Below are positions 8,591 to 60,188 of a stretch of 61,774 bases of DNA, piece by piece (positions within the stretch are counted from its first letter, which is position 1; each line of letters starts with the position of its first letter). The stretch is from Minisyncoccota bacterium. GTDB taxonomy: Bacteria > Patescibacteriota > Minisyncoccia > Phycocordibacterales > UBA2100. The translations under genes and the position numbers were made by a program. Location: positions 1 to 61,774 of the forward strand of contig JAGOVW010000004.1 of the NCBI GenBank assembly GCA_018060545.1, given 5' to 3'. The notes below the pieces were generated by a model. It was given only the letters and a program-made list of their open reading frames with translations. It did not search any database and was not told the DNA's origin.

Positions 8591-8662
8591 TTAGGTGCGC
8601 TTCTTCTTTGAAACTTTCTTTGCCTTCTTCTTAGCAGCCTTCTTAGCTTTCTTTTTTGCCAT
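8591..8662 (-). CDS. 23-aa Lys/Ala-rich basic peptide (MAKKKAKKAAKKKAKKVSKKKRT)
   Basis: Below the ORF-track cutoff. Clean ATG-TAA frame, extreme Lys bias using mixed AAA/AAG codons, terminator immediately downstream. Confidence 0.7.
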   Translation of the reverse strand: MAKKKAKKAAKKKAKKVSKKKRT

Positions 8663-8980
8663 AGTAGTTGGATTGCGTATCTAAATTTTATTTCGACCGC
8701 TCCTTGTGGGAGCTGTTACAAACATTATGGATGAATATTTGCTGCGTGATGTATTTTTTTTGTCATGTTGTGGATAAGTTAGATATGCATATATATTCAT
8801 ATATAGTTTCCGCATGCAAAGCATATCTGACATGACAGCTCAAGAGATTATTCCTCATCACAATCCAGGATGATGCCGCACATCGTCGAACACGTGACTA
8901 CGCAATCTCATCCTTATCCGACATATTGGTATCAACATAATCATTGAATGTTCGCTTCTTACTTCATCATTCCAAAAACG

Positions 8981-9011
8981 CAAAACAACCGCCTCATCAG
9001 CGGTTGTTTTG
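8981..9011. repeat. Hairpin repeat copy 1 (terminator-like)
   Basis: caaaacaaccgcctcatcagcggttgttttg; differs from the copy at 9230-9260 by one compensatory base pair. Confidence 0.8.
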
Positions 9012-9095
9012 TTTTGAGTTACACTACAAGAGCACTTCCCTGTTCTACAGTGCTGGCGCACCAAGAACAGGATGTCGCCCCCACGATGGAGGACG

Positions 9096-9111
9096 CCTGC
9101 CGGCAGGCAGG
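9096..9111. repeat. 16-bp palindromic insertion CCTGCCGGCAGGCAGG
   Basis: Present in cacgatggaggacg|ggtgcgagc (9082-9120), absent from the paralogous cacggtggaggacg|ggtgcgagc (9275-9297). Related palindrome at 59815-59837. Confidence 0.7.
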
Positions 9112-9229
9112 GGTGCGAGCACGCAAATCGCTGCGCGTTGGAAACCTCTCGGTTTCCAATACCTTCCTCCACGGGGAAACATCCAGTTTCCCCGACCCCT
9201 TTCTCCATTTGTCGCTCGCATACCGTGTG

Positions 9230-9260
9230 CAAAACGACCGCCTCATCAGCGGTCGTTTTG
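9230..9260. repeat. Hairpin repeat copy 2 (terminator-like)
   Basis: caaaacgaccgcctcatcagcggtcgttttg; would terminate a minus-strand transcript from the 9744-9771 promoter. Confidence 0.8.
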
Positions 9261-9278
9261 TTAGTTGTCGCACACACG

Positions 9279-9737
9279 GTGGAGGACGGGTGCGAGCTCC
9301 AAATGAAAATCTTATTGTGAGTGCCGCCGCCCTCCACCCTGCGGACGACACGTACAAACTGTAGCATGCTAATCACTTCGAACCCGGGTACGCGTGTGCA
9401 TTGCATTATTCCCTACCAACCTCGTAGAGTGAGCTCCCGCAGAAGCCTCTGCAGCTCCGCCCTTTTCGCGTTTCTGTACTTCAAAACTCTGCTACCGCAG
9501 AGTGAAGTGAGTACGCAAACCCACGAGTCCTGCTGCGCAGTGCACGTGAGCACGGCTCGCTGTTCTCCACACGTACGAGCAAAGCTCGCGTGTGGAGCCT
9601 CTGCAGCTCCGCCCTTTTCGCGTTTCTGTACTTCAAAACTCTGCTACCGCAGAGTGAAGGTACGGAAACGCGAAAACCCGCCGAGACGGGTGTTCACGTA
9701 GATTTTCTTGGAGACGCCACATTGCAATGGCACCCAC
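9279..9737 (-). ncRNA. Candidate structured non-coding RNA of unidentified family
   Basis: Bounded by a strong promoter and a terminator; no credible ORF. Nested end-to-end stems: 9730-9735/9288-9293, 9708-9713/9297-9302, 9700-9707/9305-9312. Many internal hairpins. Confidence 0.45.
9444..9659. repeat. 64-bp perfect direct repeat (9444-9507 and 9596-9659) around an 88-bp hairpin-rich spacer
   Basis: agcctctgcagctccgcccttttcgcgtttctgtacttcaaaactctgctaccgcagagtgaag occurs twice with a 152-bp period. Confidence 0.9.
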
Positions 9738-9743
9738 ACAGAA

Positions 9744-9771
9744 AGTATAGCTCTCGCTATTTTTGCGTCAA
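9744..9771 (-). promoter_or_regulatory. sigma70-type promoter TTGACG-N16-TATACT
   Basis: Minus strand reads ttgacg caaaaatagcgagagc tatact, pointing into the non-coding 9.0-9.74 kb region. Confidence 0.65.
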
Positions 9772-52841: not shown

Positions 52842-54174
52842 ACGTTTTAATGAGCGTAACGAATTGGTCATTACGCTCGTACTCGTTTTTAAACATGCCA
52901 AAGGAGGCGAATGCGGGACTGAAGAGAATGGTATCGCCCGGAGCGGCGACGCGCAGCGCCTCTTCGACCGCTGCGGGAAGCGAATCGTATATGGAGTAAT
53001 CTTGCATCAAGGGCGCCACACGGGAAGAACCAGTGCCGCTCAAGAGAATAACGCGCTTGCACGTGCCGGCAATTTCATAGAGCAGATTACTCATGTCCAA
53101 CCCTTTGTCTGAACCGCCCATAATAAGGACAATATTTTTAGTGCCATGCGAAAGCGCTCGCAATCCCGCTATGGTGGCATCCGGTGTGGTTGCGTTGTTG
53201 TCGTTGTATACCTGTACGTGATGAATTTCTCGCAGAAACTCAAGCCTCCCTTCCACGGCGGGAAACGAAGCGAACCCTTCTGTGATGTGCCTAATTGAGA
53301 CTCCGAGAGCCTCCAATGCAGCATTGGCTAGACCTGCATTTTCCCTATTGTGGGTCCCGGGAATACTGAGGGGCACAGATTCAGGGAGCGCCTCTACCAC
53401 CAGAGGCTGAACCGGTGGATTCATCACACGGATTTGTTCGGCAATTGCAGCACCGCATACTAGCGTATCACCAGCTCGCTGGTGCATAAAAATATTAGCC
53501 TTATCCAAAAAATAAGCATTCATATCGGGGTAGTAGTTTTGATGGTCGGGCAAAAGATTCGTGAACACGGCAATGTCCGGGCTTATATGCAGATCACCAA
53601 AACCTTGCAGCTGCCACGAATCGAGCTCGAGTACGGCGATATCCCCCATCGCGACTTCAGGAAGAAGAGCAAGTGTAGACATGCCGCGAACATTGCCCCC
53701 AATAAAAATGCGCCGTTTTGTTTCTGAAGACAGCTCTCCGGTTGCCTGGGTGAGCACGTGGTGAATGAGGTGTGTTGTAGTGGATTTGCCACGTGTTCCC
53801 GTAACACCCACCACGGTGACGCCACGTTCCATTGCAAATTTCGCAAACAGCGCTGTGGTCATGTACACAGGAATACCAGCATCGCGCGCTGCTGAAATAT
53901 ACGGTGAATCAAGTGGAACTCCCGCAGCCTTAAGCACCATGTCGCAATCGGTGAAATCTTCTACACGATGCTCTCCCAGGTGAAAGGTAATGGTAGGAAA
54001 TTCTTCGAGCTGCTGAACTGAAGAAGCGAGTTCCTCTTTAGTTTTTTTATCAGTAACGAGAACATGCGCCCCGCACTGCGCCAAGAACTTTGCATCTCCT
54101 ACGCCGCGCCCCAACAGACCCAGGCCGAGCATGGTAATCCGCTTTCCACTAAAAAAAGTATTGAACTGTTCCAT
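52828..54174 (-). CDS. murD: UDP-N-acetylmuramoyl-L-alanine--D-glutamate ligase
   Basis: GLGLLG, GVTGTRGKSTTT, LELDSWQL, DHQNYY, GRLE, YNDNNATTP, GGSDKG, SPAFASFGMFKNEYER. Confidence 0.95.
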   Translation of the reverse strand: MEQFNTFFSGKRITMLGLGLLGRGVGDAKFLAQCGAHVLVTDKKTKEELASSVQQLEEFPTITFHLGEHRVEDFTDCDMVLKAAGVPLDSPYISAARDAGIPVYMTTALFAKFAMERGVTVVGVTGTRGKSTTTHLIHHVLTQATGELSSETKRRIFIGGNVRGMSTLALLPEVAMGDIAVLELDSWQLQGFGDLHISPDIAVFTNLLPDHQNYYPDMNAYFLDKANIFMHQRAGDTLVCGAAIAEQIRVMNPPVQPLVVEALPESVPLSIPGTHNRENAGLANAALEALGVSIRHITEGFASFPAVEGRLEFLREIHHVQVYNDNNATTPDATIAGLRALSHGTKNIVLIMGGSDKGLDMSNLLYEIAGTCKRVILLSGTGSSRVAPLMQDYSIYDSLPAAVEEALRVAAPGDTILFSPAFASFGMFKNEYERNDQFVTLIKTYDAS

Positions 54175-54365
54175 GTGGGCACGAGAGGACCTGGTCACGG
54201 ATAATTTTGCTCTGCAAAATTTCCGCGACCCCGCCTCGCCAACAAGCACTCGTTGCGCTCGTCTTGTATACCGGCTCCGGCTTTCAAGTCTTCCGTATCC
54301 CTACAATACAATAGTCGCTGCATGCTGTCGCATGCAGCTCTCTTGTTTTGTGGGCACGAGAGGAC
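54174..54365. mobile_element. Miniature tRNA-associated insert bounded by a 17-bp direct repeat of the tRNA-Leu 3' end
   Basis: tgtgggcacgagaggac at 54174-54190 and 54349-54365; internal hairpins at 54193-54230 and 54317-54338; no integrase. Confidence 0.6.
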
Positions 54366-54432
54366 TTGAACCTCCAAGCCTTGCGGCATACGCTTCTGAA
54401 GCGTACGTGTATACCAATTTCACCACGTGCCC
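54351..54432 (-). tRNA. tRNA-Leu (CAG)
   Basis: GGGCACG/CGTGCCC acceptor stem, D loop GGTGAAATTGGTA, anticodon arm TACGC-TTCAGAA-GCGTA, variable arm GCCGCAAGGC, T loop GGTTCAAGTCC; CCA not encoded. Confidence 0.95.
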
Positions 54433-54517
54433 CCACATCTTGATACAACGTGTAGGGGTGTGCCCCACACGTAGCACCAGTGGTTCGCATTGTCTTACAA
54501 AAGACACAAAAAAGGAA

Positions 54518-54542
54518 GTCGCCGCGCAATGTGCGCGGCGAC
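54518..54542 (-). terminator. Intrinsic terminator after the cold-shock gene
   Basis: gtcgccgcgc...gcgcggcgac followed by a U-rich tract on the minus strand. Confidence 0.7.
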
Positions 54543-54557
54543 CATTCATCCAACGAG

Positions 54558-55133
54558 TTATCGCGGCATTCCTCCTTGCCCATCCGGTCGCAGTTCGGCG
54601 GCCATGCACCCCTTCGACCCCATTCCCCATTTCACTTGCACTATCTGCCCTGGACGCAGTTCGGTAAAGCCAAACCGCCGCAGGGTTTCCATGTGCACAA
54701 AGACGTCGGGAGTACCTTCCCCACGTGTGAGGAAACCAAACCCTCGCACGCGGTTGAACCACTTCACCATCGCACGCTCCCAGTCACTGGTTGCTTCAAC
54801 GACCACATGGGTTCGCTGCGGCAACTGCGATGGGTGGATGGCGGTGGTCTCGTCCATGCTGATGATTCGAAACGCCTGCATTCCTTTCGGGCGTTTCAGC
54901 GCCTGAAAGTCGACCGTTGCGCCCTCGTAAGCGGTTTGGTAGCCGCCGGCTCTGAGGCACGTCACGTGCAAGAGCACATCTGGCAGACCGTTGTTTGGAA
55001 CGATGAATCCGTACCCCTTCGATGCGTCGAACCACTTGATGATTCCACGTAACTCCAGAACTTCAAGACCTTGGGTGTCGTGGCCATTTTTGGCCGGCAA
55101 CGGTGAGGTTTGTTGAATGTGTGCGGACGTCAT
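54558..55133 (-). CDS. Tandem cold-shock-domain protein
   Basis: IKWFDASKGYGFI...LLHVT and VKWFNRVRGFGFL...VFVHMET; strong SD AAGGAGGT. Confidence 0.93.
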   Translation of the reverse strand: MTSAHIQQTSPLPAKNGHDTQGLEVLELRGIIKWFDASKGYGFIVPNNGLPDVLLHVTCLRAGGYQTAYEGATVDFQALKRPKGMQAFRIISMDETTAIHPSQLPQRTHVVVEATSDWERAMVKWFNRVRGFGFLTRGEGTPDVFVHMETLRRFGFTELRPGQIVQVKWGMGSKGCMAAELRPDGQGGMPR

Positions 55134-55227
55134 GCGAACCTACCTCCTTGTACTCAGATTCGGCACAGCACCGAATCTACTGCAAAGTAGGGTATGCCCG
55201 TGCGATAGTACTGTCAAATCAATAGAT

Positions 55228-55258
55228 ATGGACGCGCCCCGAGATGGGGCGCGTCCAT
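55228..55258. terminator. Hairpin, terminator-like
   Basis: atggacgcgcccc-gagat-ggggcgcgtccat right after the purN-like stop. Confidence 0.6.
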
Positions 55259-55262
55259 GGCA

Positions 55263-56000
55263 TTACGCAGCAGCGGGAAGAAAATCGTATCCGCTCGGTA
55301 TGCGAAGTGATTTAGGATTAACTCCATCCCAACTGATGTGTCGCTCCAGCACGAGTTTCGTCACGTACGGCTGAAAGCGATGCTCCATAGCATTCACCGC
55401 CTTCGCCAATGTCTCTGGCGTATCCCACGGCATGATGGGTACGGGCCACTCGAAAATGATCGGCCCTTTATCGTACTCCTTCGTAACAAAATGCATCGTG
55501 ACCGCGGACGCTTTCACACGTCCTGCGCGGTAATCTTCCATAACGCGTTCATGCACGAAGTGTCCATACATCCCCTCTCCACCATAGCGCGGATGCCCAT
55601 CGTCTCCTTTGATCGAAAGCGGGCCAGGATGAATATTTACCACGTAGCGTGGGTCAAGACCTGACTCATCGCCGTGCGGCGTACCGCGCATTGGTACGAG
55701 CCACAAGCAACCCGAGAGCATCACGAAATGATTCACACCGCCAAGCCGTTCCACCAGGGCTTCGTGCCCTTCTGGAGTACGAAGTGCCTTTGGGAAATGT
55801 TCGAAGTGCACACCGTGTTTGCGAGCCTTGGTTTCGACACCACCGCCGGCGTAGTTACCCACCACGGAAACGCGCGACACGGGGATGTTGCCCGCCTCAA
55901 TGTGATTGAGGAGGTTGTCCATACCCGAGCCACCTTCGCCGGGCTCTTTGCCGCCTGTTGCAAAGATGATGAGATTGGTTTCGTTGAGTGGCGCTTTCAT
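55263..56000 (-). CDS. Formyltransferase, PurN-like
   Basis: FATGG...GSG, VNIHPGPL, GMYGHFVH, VTMHFVTKEYDKGPII, EH. Confidence 0.85.
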   Translation of the reverse strand: MKAPLNETNLIIFATGGKEPGEGGSGMDNLLNHIEAGNIPVSRVSVVGNYAGGGVETKARKHGVHFEHFPKALRTPEGHEALVERLGGVNHFVMLSGCLWLVPMRGTPHGDESGLDPRYVVNIHPGPLSIKGDDGHPRYGGEGMYGHFVHERVMEDYRAGRVKASAVTMHFVTKEYDKGPIIFEWPVPIMPWDTPETLAKAVNAMEHRFQPYVTKLVLERHISWDGVNPKSLRIPSGYDFLPAAA

Positions 56001-56068
56001 AGTTGGTGTATCCTTTACTTGCTGAACTCGGCTGAGTGTACGGCAAAAAGCGATCCATGAAAAGAGAA

Positions 56069-56091
56069 CCGCCGCAGCTTCGCTGCGGCGG
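56069..56091 (-). terminator. Intrinsic terminator
   Basis: ccgccgcagc-ttc-gctgcggcgg with U-rich tail on the minus strand. Confidence 0.6.
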
Positions 56092-56106
56092 CAAAACGTG
56101 AAAGAC

Positions 56107-56601
56107 TTACTCGTAGAACCTCCACTCTTTAGCGCGCAAACCTTTCGGTCGCGTCTCTACAGTCAAAATGATTCGCTGTCCGATGCGAGGATAACGCACA
56201 GGCTTCGGTCCCTGCATGACATTGACCAGCGCGCTTTCTCCTCCATCCAGATCTGCAAAGCCAAACCCTTTGCCTTCGTCGAATGACCGCACCGTAGCGG
56301 CATTCTCGCCGGGAAGTAGCGTTACCACATGTGTGTGCGCTGCGCTCGCGTCATGACCATTGTGGGCAGGGTCACGCACTGGCTTTTCATAGATGGGCCA
56401 CTCGCTTCCGTCAGCGAGTCGCACGCTTCTTGCTTCGGCGTCTTTGCCGTTGCGGGCGGGCGCGCCCACCTCAAACTCCACTCGCCTGCCGACTACCTCG
56501 TCTTGACGGACATTAGGCACTCGGAAGAAAAATAGTTTGCCGTGCGCGGTTTCGATGGTGCCATACCCGTGCTTACGAAAGCGTTTAACGACGCCTTCCA
56601 T
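56107..56601 (-). CDS. Divergent tandem cold-shock/OB-fold protein
   Basis: MEGVVKRFRKHGYGTI...LFFF...VEFEV and VRSFDEGKGFGFA...KGLRAKE; SD AGGAG. Confidence 0.7.
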   Translation of the reverse strand: MEGVVKRFRKHGYGTIETAHGKLFFFRVPNVRQDEVVGRRVEFEVGAPARNGKDAEARSVRLADGSEWPIYEKPVRDPAHNGHDASAAHTHVVTLLPGENAATVRSFDEGKGFGFADLDGGESALVNVMQGPKPVRYPRIGQRIILTVETRPKGLRAKEWRFYE

Positions 56602-56704
56602 GGAGATGCTCCTATTTGCTGAAACTTGAGCGAGTGTAGCAAAGATGGTGTAGTTTTCAATGGTGGAGTATTTCTTTTTTACATATTTGTGATATAATAC
56701 AAAC

Positions 56705-57409
56705 ATGAAGCGCAAACGCAAAGGAGTCCAGTTTTGGAATAGCGAGTACGCGAAAAGCGGTACCTTTGCACTATCTCACGAACCTAGTGAGGACCTGGAA
56801 AAATTCTGCCGCTTTCTTGAACGCGACTATGGTCGCAAGTACTTGAATCCCCTGTGCCAAGCAGTGGACTTGGGGTGTGGTAACGGTCGCAACCTCATCT
56901 ATCTATCCGAACATTTCGGATTTAAAGGGTACGGCGTAGACAGTGCCAAAGAAGCCATCGTGCAGGCTCGAGCGCATGCGCAGGAAAAAGAACTCCCACT
57001 TACCTTTGCCGTAGGATCAATCAAAGACCCACTCCCTCTCAAAGACAAAACTCAGGCAATCGTGATTGACGCTATGGTGTCGCACATTTTGAAAAACGCA
57101 GAGCGCGAAGCGATGCTTGCAGAAATTTTGCGCGTTCTGCGCCCTGATGGATGGTACTTCTTTAAAACGTTTCTCTTGAATGGCGACGAACATGCGGCCC
57201 GCCTCCTGGCCGAACATCCTGGATCCGAGCCCCACTCATACATCCATCCTGAAATCGGTGTGGAGGAACATGTCTTTAGTGAACAGGAACTGCACGACCT
57301 CCTCGAACCTAATTTCATCGTACACAAAGTGCACAAATCCCATGGCCATATGAAGAATGGTCGTGCATTCCGCCGACGCTCGGTCACGGTGTACGCGCAG
57401 AAGCGCTAG
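56705..57409 (+). CDS. Class I SAM methyltransferase
   Basis: AVDLGCGNGRN, GVDSA, LRPDGW; TATAAT-6nt-ATG. Confidence 0.88.
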   Translation: MKRKRKGVQFWNSEYAKSGTFALSHEPSEDLEKFCRFLERDYGRKYLNPLCQAVDLGCGNGRNLIYLSEHFGFKGYGVDSAKEAIVQARAHAQEKELPLTFAVGSIKDPLPLKDKTQAIVIDAMVSHILKNAEREAMLAEILRVLRPDGWYFFKTFLLNGDEHAARLLAEHPGSEPHSYIHPEIGVEEHVFSEQELHDLLEPNFIVHKVHKSHGHMKNGRAFRRRSVTVYAQKR

Positions 57410-58626
57410 TGCCCGTGGCCGGTAGTAATTTCGCCGTCGTAGACATCTGGATTAGGTTCTCCGGAAACCTTGAGCACTCCCCACGCACCGCGATCCAAGC
57501 GCGAGAGGGCGTGATCCACAATCACGTAGTTTCCTGGTACTTGGGTATCAAATTCAGCAACAGTTGCTCCACCGGCGGGAACAAGCGTAGTCTGTATGTC
57601 TGCATGTGGTTCTCTGATTGCCGCCTCAGGGAACACGCGGTCAAAGACCTCACCAATGAGGTGGAAGGATGAAATCAGATTCACTCCCCCATTCCCCACA
57701 TAGAAACGCGCCGTCTCACCAGTCGACATGGCCATCTTTTCATTAAGACCTCCGACGCGGCCATTGAACACAATGTATTGAGGCTTTCCATCGAGCATGG
57801 CTTGTGGATCAAAAATCTGCAGCCCTTTTCTTCCCATTTGCCCTGCGGTATAAAACTCACCTTGCATGAGGTAATACTCTTTATCCACCTTGCTCAGCCC
57901 TTCAGCAGGTTCAACAAGAATAAGACCGTACATGCCGTGCGTCATATGATTGGCAACATTCGGGTGCGCACAGTGGTACACGAAAAGTCCTGGGTGCAGT
58001 GCTTTGAACGTGACTGTTTTTCCTTCTCCTGGCGCAACCATCGTTGAGACAGCACCCCCGCCAGGGCCAGTAACTGCGTGCAAATCGATGTTGTGGTGAT
58101 GCAGACTGGTGGGGTCATTATTGAGCGTAAGCTTAACGGTGTCCCCTTCCCGAACGCGAAGCATTGGCCCTGGGACCGTGCCGTCAAACGTCCAGTAGTT
58201 TATGAAAACTCCTGGCGCCATTTCGGCTATGACCTCTTTTGCAGTGAGGCTAATTTCAACAGTGGTAGTGCCCACTCTATCTATCGGCAGCGGCACGTCA
58301 TTTGGGTTGCGTGCAATGTCAGTGACGCGCTCAAAATTTTTGAAATGCGTGAAAAAATCAGCCACATTTTTAAACGGTAATACTGGGCCGTCTGCTGGGC
58401 CGTACGTTTTGAGAAAGAATGGGTACGCAAAACCATGCGGGAGCCCGTTTGGCGCGTAGAAGAAAATCGAAACACCCAAAAACACAAAAAGAAGCGCGAC
58501 GGTTACTTTTAGCGAATGTAACTTCCGTAGGATAAGAAATATAAATACTGCTGCAAAAAAGTATGCAATGAATAGTCCTGCACTCTGCACAATCGTGCCG
58601 ATAGTGAACGAAAGTATGTCTGCCAT
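57406..58626 (-). CDS. nirK: Copper-containing nitrite reductase with N-terminal TM anchor
   Basis: HNIDLHAV (T1 His, catalytic Asp, T2 His), YHCA...HMTHGMYG (T2 His, T1 Cys/His/Met), SSFHLIGE (catalytic His), VDHAL (T2 His); two TM helices at the N-terminus. Confidence 0.93.
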   Translation of the reverse strand: MADILSFTIGTIVQSAGLFIAYFFAAVFIFLILRKLHSLKVTVALLFVFLGVSIFFYAPNGLPHGFAYPFFLKTYGPADGPVLPFKNVADFFTHFKNFERVTDIARNPNDVPLPIDRVGTTTVEISLTAKEVIAEMAPGVFINYWTFDGTVPGPMLRVREGDTVKLTLNNDPTSLHHHNIDLHAVTGPGGGAVSTMVAPGEGKTVTFKALHPGLFVYHCAHPNVANHMTHGMYGLILVEPAEGLSKVDKEYYLMQGEFYTAGQMGRKGLQIFDPQAMLDGKPQYIVFNGRVGGLNEKMAMSTGETARFYVGNGGVNLISSFHLIGEVFDRVFPEAAIREPHADIQTTLVPAGGATVAEFDTQVPGNYVIVDHALSRLDRGAWGVLKVSGEPNPDVYDGEITTGHGH

Positions 58627-58716
58627 ATGTTTCATTATACGCCGCTGCACAGATGGCTAGACACGCGGGTGCATATCACACAGAAAGGGCGAGCGCGTAG
58701 CGCTCGCCCTTTTTCT

Positions 58717-59217
58717 CTACTTCACATTATCTTTCCGCATCGCACGCCCCACATACTCCGCAAGCGTCATCCGCGTCTGTGCGCTTGGCGGTCCGTACAC
58801 CATCGTCTCTGCCGGCACATCTTTTGCCACCATCGTTCCCGCACCGATGACCGCTCGCTTCCCGATAGTTACCCCAGGAAGCACAATCACTCCAGCGCCC
58901 AACAGACACCCTGTTTCAAGAACGATCTCGCGCAGTATGTCTTCGTTAGCTGCCCCGTGTATGCCGATGGGGTGCCACACACCGACGAGCGAGCAATTCG
59001 GGCCAATTTGCACTTCAGCGCCTATGTGCACTTGCTCGGCGTAGGTACCCGCATTAATTTCGGCACCAGCACCGACTGAGCACCGTTTCAAGGACACCCG
59101 TTCGTAGATACGCGCACCTGCACCAATGGTGCAGGTGCGCAGCGTTACAAATTCACGTACTTCGACGCCGTCCTGTATGGGGGTGTCGACGATGACCGAT
59201 AGTCCGCTCACTGCCAT
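58717..59217 (-). CDS. Hexapeptide-repeat (left-handed beta-helix) acyltransferase
   Basis: IGAGARI, VGAGAEI, IGAEVQIGPNC, LGAGVIVLPGVTIGKRAVIGAGTMVAKDVP. Confidence 0.85.
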   Translation of the reverse strand: MAVSGLSVIVDTPIQDGVEVREFVTLRTCTIGAGARIYERVSLKRCSVGAGAEINAGTYAEQVHIGAEVQIGPNCSLVGVWHPIGIHGAANEDILREIVLETGCLLGAGVIVLPGVTIGKRAVIGAGTMVAKDVPAETMVYGPPSAQTRMTLAEYVGRAMRKDNVK

Positions 59218-59344
59218 GTGCCACTCTCCTGTTTTTCCTATACTGAACCTACCATGTGAGGCACAGCATGCACATACCCACATACTCCTTGCGTGACAAG
59301 CCAACATACGATTATCTATCAAGAGGCCCCAAAGGAGTATCGCT

Positions 59345-59614
59345 ATGCATGATCGCGACTTCCAGGCACAGATCAAAGGCTTCAGTCTCACAACCGCGGA
59401 GCTGCTCTACCGACTACCTGATTTCCCAAAAATTCTGCAGGTGTATGTGTGGCAGGATTACGACCTGCATCCACAATTTCCCAAACTACGGAAATTTCTC
59501 GATTATTGGACAATCAATATTGAGGGGAAGCTCGCTCATGTACGCATCATGCATGCGCGACTTATTACTCCACGCGAGATTGGTTTTGTGGACAAGGAGT
59601 TTAAACTGAACTGA
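59345..59614 (+). CDS. usg: Usg-like protein
   Basis: LTTAELLYRLPDFP.ILQ.YVWQDYDL.P.FP.L..FL.YW...IEG.L..V matches the Usg family pattern as I recall it. Confidence 0.85.
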   Translation: MHDRDFQAQIKGFSLTTAELLYRLPDFPKILQVYVWQDYDLHPQFPKLRKFLDYWTINIEGKLAHVRIMHARLITPREIGFVDKEFKLN

Positions 59615-59637
59615 CTAGTTCGCAGACGAAAACACAG

Positions 59638-59664
59638 AAGCGGCCCGACGTAGTCGGGCCGCTT
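59638..59664. terminator. Hairpin, terminator-like
   Basis: aagcggcccgac-gta-gtcgggccgctt. Confidence 0.65.
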
Positions 59665-59771
59665 GTCATCACGCAACCTTATTCTTATCGATCGGATAGT
59701 GGCCAGTTTACTTTGCAAGCATTCGCAGACATATTCAATTCTACCGCATCTATTCTGAGGGTTTCTATCTC

Positions 59772-59977
59772 TGAACGCACCAGGGATGTCTCCCACAAGT
59801 TTTCTTGTCGCCGACCCTGCCTGCCGGCCAGGCAGGGCGTCAAGAAACTCGCGTGCCGCTCCTCGCTCCCCACGCTGCTGCGTGTGGGCCCACTGCGGAC
59901 CTTCGACCCCCAGTCGCAACAGTCTCCCAGACTGTTGCTTGCAAGCCTAAAACTTCGTTTTTGTGCACGCACTAGGG
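59772..59977. mobile_element. Miniature tRNA-associated insert ending in a degenerate copy of the tRNA-Ile 3' end
   Basis: tgaacgcaccaggg (59772-59785) vs tgcacgcactaggg (59964-59977), 12/14 identical. Internal hairpin ~59798-59850 is capped by palindrome ccctgcctgccggccaggcaggg. Confidence 0.45.
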
Positions 59978-60036
59978 GTCGAACCTAGGACCTTTCGAGT
60001 ATCAGTCGAATGCTCTACCAACTGAGCTATGCGTGC
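59964..60036 (-). tRNA. tRNA-Ile (GAT)
   Basis: GCACGCA/TGCGTGC acceptor stem, TAGCTCAGTTGGTAGAGC D arm, TTCGA-CTGATAC-TCGAA anticodon arm, CTAGG-TTCGACC-CCTAG T arm. Confidence 0.92.
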
Positions 60037-60086
60037 GTATGTTTTAACCAAACCTTCACCTTAAAATGCATTTCAGTTGAATGCTC

Positions 60087-60118
60087 CCCGCCCGTACCGA
60101 ACGGTACGTTCGGGCGGG
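60087..60118. repeat. GC-rich imperfect palindrome upstream of tRNA-Ile
   Basis: cccgcccgtaccgaacggtacgttcgggcggg. Confidence 0.55.
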
Positions 60119-60188
60119 TACCAACTCATCTTCAGGCGTGGGGGCACTATAGCAAAAAAGACTCTTTTTGTGAACCCATAAATCGAAA

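Follow-up and report, generated by a model that had tools for sequence, protein, structure and literature searches.

Gene-less structured elements that end in a copy of the neighbouring tRNA 3′ end in a Minisyncoccota bacterium and its relatives

The DNA analysed here, hereafter the window, is the 61,774-nucleotide stretch (positions 1 to 61,774) of contig JAGOVW010000004.1 from a Minisyncoccota bacterium. At three places in it an RNA gene is followed by an insert of 150–250 nt without an open reading frame (ORF), which ends in a second copy of that RNA's 3′ end: behind tRNA-Leu, behind tRNA-Ile, and behind a putative RNA in the gene-free stretch next to secA (case c). All three repeats had been reported in a preliminary description, and repeat and shuffle analysis together with comparison to a sister species bears them out; the order of parts given there (RNA 3′ end, hairpin, purine-rich middle, long hairpin, 3′-end copy) also stands. 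The RNA genes found in the window by ARAGORN and Rfam are tRNA-Leu(CAG) and tRNA-Ile(GAT), with no further Rfam family at gathering score, and over the three regions Rfam returned chance-level matches only, whether at gathering score or at E ≤ 10.

Judged by its match to R1, the covariance model described below, the insert between tRNA-Leu and murD is a canonical class A member of a family of gene-less elements. Its parts are as follows.

54350–54432, minus strand: tRNA-Leu(CAG), found by ARAGORN and Rfam; the last 19 nt (54350–54368) are "tail 1"
54317–54338, minus strand: hairpin H1, GCTGCATGC-GACA-GCATGCAGC, from the fold; variable across the family
54283–54301, minus strand: anti-tail GGGATACGGAAGACTTGAA, an inverted repeat; the minimum free energy fold pairs it with the tRNA tail
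54233–54281, minus strand: hairpin P2, GCC-GGAG-(36-nt stem-loop)-CGA-GGC, with a G·A-type internal loop; from the R1 alignment and the covariation GCC/GGC versus GAC/GTC
54193–54232, minus strand: junction GG and hairpin P3, GGTCGCGG-AAATTTTGC-AGA-GCAAAATT-A-TCCGTGACC; from the R1 match and pair counts
54174–54192, minus strand: tail 2, AGGTCCTCTCGTGCCCACA, a repeat which starts at T-loop position 57

The two tails form a direct repeat (54174–54193 and 54349–54368) matching at 19 of 20 positions, 17 bases of it exact, and none of 5000 shuffles reached 17 of 18. The murD start codon adjoins tail 2, the last A of the tail being the A of the start codon. The anti-tail is complementary to the T-loop, 3′ T-stem and 3′ acceptor strand of tRNA-Leu (14/19, best block 10/11), while P3 carries the G·U pair and the bulged A that are conserved in the family. 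R1 matches 54191–54289 with 53.1 bits (E = 4e-12), P2, the GG junction and P3 all being present.

A reverse-complement copy of the 3′ part of the RNA, the anti-tail, occurs in every one of the three inserts (54283–54293, 59902–59914 and 9162–9172). The preliminary description had missed it, as it had a fourth unit bounded by 64-nt exact repeats and, ahead of tRNA-Ile in its 5′ leader, an insert of 88 nt. The folds of all three regions are much more stable than those of their shuffles (z = −8.0, −5.4 and −7.7). Direct alignment gives almost no common primary sequence among the Leu, Ile and case c inserts, so that their kinship is visible only through the family model and the relatives.

Relatives were surveyed at 80 loci fetched via MurD, at sister loci reached through SecA homologues, and at metagenome loci scanned for the core. 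Among the 80 MurD loci tail copies stand behind a few tRNAs, and one core, present at about 4 of 38 tRNAs, is common to the Leu insert of the window, a tRNA-Ser (L026) and a tRNA-Leu (L067). The core is Y-shaped, and the pattern is anti-tail – G[C/A]C-GGAG – hairpin P2 – CGA-G[G/T]C – GG – GGTCGCG..hairpin P3..CGTGACC – tail. The scan of metagenomes for this core led to 120 loci; R1 was derived from 44 minimal cores and recovers 117 copies from 577 kb of such loci. Within the core 96.9% of cells are paired and changes on both sides are seen in 18 of 22 pairs, the covariation score being 0.57 as against 0.16 for shuffled and 0.06–0.11 for slid controls. The pair C10–G versus A10–U (GCC/GGC versus GAC/GTC) covaries nearly without exception. 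One P3 position is G·U in 115 of 116 copies, and in the rest of the core G·U exceeds A·C (28 versus 12), which places the fold on the tRNA-sense strand.

The family thus described consists of small (~100–200 nt), gene-less, structured elements at the ends of tRNA genes, tmRNA genes and a few other highly transcribed genes in Paceibacteria/Kaiserbacteria-type members of the candidate phyla radiation (CPR). We found no published description of it in the literature on CPR, tRNA-linked repeats and T-loop elements. Rfam has no family which matches the core, known omega-RNA and bridge-type families included. RF00391, the RtT RNA of the 178-bp repeats of E. coli tyrT, gives no match at gathering score or at E ≤ 10. 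When a 15-mer of the core was compared with viral contigs, about 119 of 120 matches were due to chance in GC-rich phages and one, L084, was a true member. On this 34.7-kb IMG/VR contig, flagged as viral (L084/L271), family members stand in tandem behind an NrdD-like C-terminal ORF; a tRNA-Ser-like tail closes the array, and ARAGORN finds no complete tRNA there.

About 80 cores lie 36–345 nt behind a tRNA gene of the same strand (19 amino-acid types) or a tmRNA gene, without cargo, and a few copies are placed after protein genes; copies are always on the strand of the host gene. Three layouts can be told apart. In class A the tail copy begins at T-loop position 57, directly after GTGACC, and runs to the end of the tRNA plus 0–4 trailer bases; no CCA is added where the gene is without one, the anti-tail is complementary from T54 on, and tandem units are common. 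In class B the final tRNA bases and the trailer or terminator, together with their complement, form the helix ahead of the core, and only ~7 nt are repeated after the core. In class C, to which few copies belong, the core stands 50–100 nt before the tRNA, with a copy of the tRNA 5′ end ahead of it and its complement behind. Pairing between the bases ahead of P2 and those after P3 closes a three-way junction in classes A and B.

The tail repeat is 17–18/18 in about 35 family members. It begins within the T-loop (C56/R57) and stops at the tRNA 3′ end, as it does with tRNA-targeting islands. Anti-tails are tailored to the host: the score is 25.5 against the own tRNA and 12.9 against others, and in 47 of 73 cases the own tRNA ranks first. 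The tail:anti-tail helix has 30 G·U and 37 A·C oppositions, that is, no wobble excess. In many members the first hairpin, which separates the tRNA from the core, has a T-run and the look of a genuine intrinsic terminator, yet the conserved covarying part lies beyond such hairpins and the element is more than a plain trailer. Within 4 kb of ~100 members no recombinase, transposase or reverse transcriptase (RT) family recurs, clustering of the ORFs giving housekeeping families only; the earlier remark that the window is free of an integrase accordingly holds more widely for recombinases.

A different kind of copy was seen at the tRNA-Ile loci L064, L072 and L075 of relatives. There the entire 3′ half of tRNA-Ile, beginning with the anticodon stem, has been copied, in some cases from a different allele, which is the classical signature of anticodon-loop integration; at L075 such a copy is combined with a P3-only version of the core.

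The features at tRNA-Ile of the window are these.

59963–60036, minus strand: tRNA-Ile(GAT), found by ARAGORN and Rfam
59771–59962, minus strand: Ile element, from partial R1 matches; the sister-species orthologue is identical at 160 of 167 positions
59902–59914, minus strand: anti-tail
59861–59901, minus strand: P2-like part
59794–59853, minus strand: P3-like hairpin
59771–59788, minus strand: tail 2 (13/18)
59817–59840, no strand assigned: palindrome CCCTGCCTGGCCGGCAGGCAGGG in the P3 loop; missing from the sister species
60040–60127, minus strand: 88-nt window-specific insert in the tRNA-Ile 5′ leader, with direct repeats; missing from L326 and the sister species

Taken alone, the direct repeat of the window is weak (13/18, shuffle P = 0.008), as 13/18 is also the top background level among 37 other tRNA flanks. 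An inverted copy of the RNA end lies at 59902–59914 (12/13), and tail and anti-tail in the correct order were obtained in 0 of 5000 shuffles. The element of the sister species closes with a perfect 16-nt tail copy, CCCTAGTGCGTGCACA, and its anti-tail matches 12/12, so that the repeat of the window is a slightly altered true copy. The core read by eye is CGAGGAGCGGCACGCG. R1 gives two partial, weak matches to the insert (P2-like, E = 0.19; P3-like hairpin, E = 0.28), which are the best non-self matches in the whole window and lie on the correct strand; the same is true in the sister species. The window-specific changes are compatible with wobble pairing, namely A>G at two positions of the closing helix and G·U for A–U in P3. 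Going by these sequence comparisons, we regard the tRNA-Ile insert as a probable, divergent family member.

The 88-nt insert in the leader is a partial copy of tRNA-Ile positions ~10–35, split by a 32-nt palindrome, CCCGCCCGAACGTACCGTTCGGTACGGGCGGG. This palindrome has a ~17-fold excess depth in wastewater runs. At 57406–59391 the window has a NirK copper nitrite reductase gene and a neighbouring 224-aa gene; the sister is without both, and Usg adjoins a methyltransferase there. The NUDIX and 178-aa genes which the sister has behind tRNA-Ile are missing in the window, the homology stopping inside the tail copy, after GTGCGT.

The features of case c and of the fourth unit are as follows.

9266–9352, minus strand: case c RNA "X", an 87-nt hairpin RNA whose final 32 nt form the repeated tail; identity with the sister species 99/101
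9201–9262, minus strand: terminator-like hairpin (9229–9262) and the tail-complementary pieces GCACACGGT and ATGCGAGC; kept in the empty allele too
8975–9200, minus strand: case c unit, missing from strain L324 (comparison of L321 with L324)
within that unit: M1 (9121–9200) with GTGGAGGAAGG, complementary to the tail; tail 2 (9073–9120, with a palindrome at 9096–9111); a 56-nt hairpin piece; a second terminator copy (8980–9013)
9444–9680, minus strand: fourth unit, with a long hairpin (9612–9680), a P2-like junction GGC-GGAG-CTGCAG-AG-GCT and a P3-like hairpin

Once the 16-nt palindrome (9096–9111) is set aside, the case c repeat (9073–9120 versus 9266–9297) matches at 29 of 32 positions; in the sister species it is 32/32 and the palindrome is not present. 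R1 has no match at E < 10 over 9073–9297. Case c has the layout of the family with a different core, the sole resemblance being a GGGGTCG-hairpin, and by the model R1 it does not count as a family member. Since no Rfam family matches X, it is listed here as an RNA gene without an assignment; tmRNA, signal recognition particle RNA, RNase P RNA and 6S RNA are not supported by ARAGORN or Rfam. The fourth unit is marked by 64-nt exact repeats at 9444–9507 and 9596–9659, and R1 gives E = 0.05 at its orthologous place in L321/L324. A contig of run X2 skips one 152-bp unit of this repeat, and the skipped middle has no coverage.

The gene-free stretch that holds these units extends over 1.48 kb from a Wzy/TPR gene to secA and includes a promoter-like site (9771–9744), several structured units and X (window 9266–9771). 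In three wastewater runs, 35–39-nt contigs with 2–3 mismatches match CCCCGTGGAGGAAGGTATTGGAAACCGAGAGGTTTCC (within 9138–9203) at a depth of 400–750, compared with ~15 for the genome. Longer contigs share 9164–9203 with the window and have other flanks. Module M1 is therefore either widespread or part of something abundant. At 8591–8662 lies a small Lys-rich ORF (MAKKKAKKAAKKKAKKVSKKKRT) with its own terminator, fully kept in the sister, where a 255-nt block is 238/255 identical. The palindrome CCTGCC(T)GCCGGCAGGCAGG is found at 9096–9111 and 59817–59840 of the window and also in L003, L010, L071, L274 and L287, at unrelated sites and in relatives even inside or near coding DNA. It interrupts the case c tail copy and the Ile P3 loop, and as neither insertion exists in the sister species it acts like a mobile palindrome in its own right, of very small size.

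The sister species is represented by L321 (same assembly as L001), of which L324 is another strain, and L326–L328 were also reached through SecA; no entry identical to the SecA of the window was on record. Empty alleles, a search for which had been proposed beforehand, exist at two places. The tRNA-Leu of the sister is nearly identical and its upstream region syntenic, the site is empty, and a 266-aa gene stands between the tRNA and murD. For case c, the unit is present in L321, where the tail copy matches at 32 of 32 positions and an exact direct repeat measures 80 nt, whereas L324, with flanks 100% identical to those of L321 (565 + 699 bases), has 11 nt in place of 242 nt; this empty allele keeps the terminator and the anti-tail. 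Behind both tRNA-Leu and tRNA-Ile of the window, gene loss and insertion have their end points at the tail copies. In assembled contigs of the DNA runs, no empty-site or circle joints were present at the Leu or Ile loci.

Shared copies are strongly conserved. Between window and sister the SecA protein is 92% identical and its 4-fold sites 37.5%, so that synonymous sites are saturated, and unconstrained spacers are 38–51% identical. Over the same distance the Ile element, in the same place, is identical at 160/167, X at 99/101, the terminator with anti-tail at 62/64 and M1 with tail at 107/114. Likewise L026 and L051, whose MurD is 67% identical (4-fold sites 38.6%), have the same tRNA-Ser element with a core ~90% identical and a compensatory swap of AC/GT to CA/TG; in L051 the core is present, the first hairpin and the anti-tail being absent. 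Since empty sites exist and yet shared copies stay 94–96% identical, elements are gained and lost as DNA, the T-loop or the 3′ end being the joint, and selected once resident. The sequence comparison thus points to resident copies held by selection, repeated re-invasion of the same site being a less simple alternative, and to elements which, once present, behave like a selected structured RNA gene.

The reading that we favour, with a probability of roughly 0.45, is that the elements are co-transcribed RNA modules, closed by a mimic of the tRNA acceptor/T-stem helix, which spread rarely through tail homology. The family, its fold, the fit of the arms to the host, gain and loss, and conservation have been documented above; transcription, processing and function would be as follows. 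The DNA is laid out as x – hairpin – x′ – core – x, with x the terminal stretch of the host RNA gene (in tRNAs it begins at T-loop position 57 and reaches the 3′ end), x′ its reverse complement, and the core the hairpins P2 and P3 round a fixed junction. The active form would be the tRNA-sense single strand, most likely a read-through RNA from the promoter of the host gene. In it x′ would zip with the distal x into a helix which repeats the stacked acceptor and T stems of the tRNA and closes the three-way junction. Because this helix copies the acceptor/T-stem stack, the enzymes acting on tRNA ends (RNase P, RNase Z and the CCA-adding enzyme) could excise the module and finish a discrete RNA, whose core would do the actual job, probably by protein binding. 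New copies would arise rarely, as DNA, by recombination or duplication via tail homology; copy number would change through flanking direct repeats, and purifying selection would keep resident copies.

Several observations weigh against this. Metatranscriptomes cover only the neighbouring csp-like gene, no element and not RNA X. The terminator-like first hairpin precedes the core in many members, so that only read-through RNA would contain the core. The absence of a G·U excess over A·C between tail and anti-tail fits a templated or DNA-level repeat better than an RNA helix under long selection, and the core of L051 does without an anti-tail. Conservation at one site could also stem from repeated site-specific re-invasion. 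Finally, how the anti-tail becomes matched to each new host gene is explained neither by this nor by any other reading.

The main alternative, possible though less likely, is non-autonomous site-specific mobile DNA. A single-stranded form of ~150 nt, or a tiny double-stranded one, would rebuild with tail and anti-tail the duplex of the T-loop/3′ region as a folded attachment site, P2 and P3 would be the handle for a recombinase encoded elsewhere (an Xer-like tyrosine recombinase or an HUH enzyme), and insertion into the T-loop or the 3′ end would leave the displaced tail. Of the readings in the preliminary description, which is supported in part, its "non-autonomous mini-islands" come closest: the repeat from T-loop to 3′ end, the lack of genes and the empty sites in relatives agree with them. 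The start of the repeat in the T-loop or at the 3′ end suits such mobile DNA; Williams, in 2002, reportedly described both as sublocations for tyrosine integrases. In phage Ms6 the attP core is found in the T-loop (PMC1762012), and a tRNA gene split by an island is restored by it (PMC4383910). Empty and filled sites, tandem arrays, cores ~90% identical with differing flanks in one community, a member on the phage-like contig L084/L271, terminator-like hairpins ahead of the core and a tail:anti-tail helix without wobble bias all suit mobile DNA, and the conserved bulged A and G·T mismatches of P3 are like those of strand-selective single-stranded DNA sites. However, recurrent recombinases or transposases are missing from the 4 kb around ~100 copies, no joint or circle is seen in the assembled contigs, and the case c anti-tail is present in the empty allele. 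Selfish copies should moreover decay, whereas same-site copies stay 94–96% identical over saturated divergence and show compensatory changes.

A bolder version, which we hold to be improbable, would make these the smallest self-targeting mobile elements so far, that is, protein-less nucleic acids of 100–150 nt whose constant Y-shaped scaffold recruits a host enzyme, with the anti-tail as a guide to the universal T-loop/3′ end of a tRNA or tmRNA gene, or to the end of some other transcript, and the arms re-copied from the target (for example by hairpin-primed synthesis), later adopted by the host as tRNA-linked RNA. If the arms were re-copied at each insertion, tail and anti-tail would always fit the local gene.

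Still less probable, in our view, is a guide-plus-scaffold RNA for an unlinked enzyme, in which the anti-tail and/or the tail copy would be the guide, P2 and P3 the scaffold, and the tRNA or its gene the target of homing, editing, modification or defence. The parallel would be with transposon-encoded guides, the omega-RNA of TnpB and the bridge RNA of IS110. A constant scaffold does stand beside a host-tailored segment, the tail copy follows directly on the scaffold as the TnpB guide follows the transposon right end, and the anti-tail covers both sides of the junction point in the intact T-loop. Yet there is no TnpB, IscB, IS110 or RT gene near members, Rfam gives no match to omega-RNA or bridge-type families, and some conserved copies are without an anti-tail or have only 6–7 nt of tail.

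An RtT-like trailer repeat has an equally slight chance. It would be the by-product of unequal recombination or slippage at tRNA 3′ ends, kept as a terminator or processing structure with no separate product. The 178-bp repeats of E. coli tyrT, to which the layout is akin, each end in the 3′ end of tRNA-Tyr; here too the number of units varies via direct repeats and hairpins with T-runs are present. But the covarying core is found behind 19 tRNA types, tmRNA and some protein genes, and also before tRNAs, and local slippage cannot create one core at so many hosts. In addition RF00391 does not match, and most orthologous tRNAs manage without the element. Nor do the data favour the "RNA-templated duplication" of the preliminary description with a mature tRNA as template, as the tails extend into 0–4 nt of genomic trailer and do not gain a CCA where the gene has none; an origin of the tail in mature tRNA is rejected on this ground.

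Scars of excised larger islands, likewise proposed beforehand, or chance repeats are scarcely credible: short tRNA 3′-end fragments are indeed common island scars (PMC9897764, PMC4383910) and plain 3′-half copies occur at L064, L072 and L075, but for the three cases the R1 score, shuffle tests, sister copies, a conserved core with covariation and compensatory changes, purifying selection across saturated synonymous divergence (94–96% identity), and the position of ~80 tRNA-linked copies, all within 36–345 nt of the tRNA and without cargo, refute both.

Should the elements be RNAs, as in the co-transcribed module preferred here, they would be a widespread, strongly conserved CPR RNA class new to Rfam, each copy riding on a tRNA gene and copying its acceptor/T-stem helix, and would open a question on tRNA-end processing or tRNA-linked regulation and quality control in minimal genomes. 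Should they be mobile DNA, every known integrative element that targets tRNA genes would be much larger than they are, and they would imply an unlinked, possibly programmable recombination. Either way they account for many "orphan" tRNA 3′-end fragments in CPR genomes and mark rearrangement hot spots.

Among known systems, the islands and prophages which integrate in tRNA and tmRNA genes by means of tyrosine integrases (PMC4383910, PMC1762012) share with the elements a direct repeat of the tRNA 3′ part flanking the insert, its start in the T-loop or at the 3′ end and stop at the gene end, an intact gene, tmRNA as a host, tandems and empty sites. The hallmark of such islands, an intact tRNA gene together with a directly oriented, displaced piece of itself, is seen for Leu (19/20), case c (29/32) and Ile (13/18 in the window, 16/16 in the sister). 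Unlike the islands, which are kilobases long, the elements measure 100–200 nt and contain no integrase or other gene; they have a covarying core and an internal reverse-complement copy of the target, are under purifying selection across species, and lie in some cases before tRNAs or after protein genes.

RtT units lie directly behind a tRNA gene and end in its 3′ end. Transcribed together with the tRNA and released from its precursor by processing, they have a function that is little understood. They resemble the elements as repeat units behind a tRNA, each with a copy of that tRNA's 3′ end. RtT is, however, bound to the tRNA-Tyr of enterobacteria, whereas the CPR core follows at least 19 tRNA types with tail and anti-tail tailored anew.

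Integron attC sites, the attP(+) of CTX phage and the ends of IS200/IS605 would be akin to the CPR elements in that function depends on the fold of one strand, the hairpins are imperfect with conserved bulged bases and mismatches, a duplex site is built from a sequence and its inverted copy, and such elements can be gene-less and moved in trans. For the CPR elements no partner such as IntI, Xer or Y1-HUH was found near members; they target the tRNA T-loop and leave a long direct repeat of it, and there is evidence of selection at the level of the host.

REP/BIME, Correia, RPE and other miniature inverted-repeat transposable elements (MITEs) are also small, gene-less, structured, multi-copy and sporadic in relatives, and can lie in transcribed regions. 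Such elements are bounded by inverted repeats and by short target duplications of fixed size, and show neither tailoring to the host gene nor a copy of its 3′ end.

In a tRNA it is the stack of acceptor and T stems that RNase P, RNase Z and the CCA-adding enzyme recognise. Plant-mitochondrial t-elements, viral tRNA-like structures and bacterial YrlA RNAs are like the CPR elements in that the closing helix is this stack together with the discriminator. They differ in that here the T-loop is replaced by a two-hairpin junction, no Rfam family matches, and the helix is an exact copy of the neighbouring tRNA rather than a generic shape.

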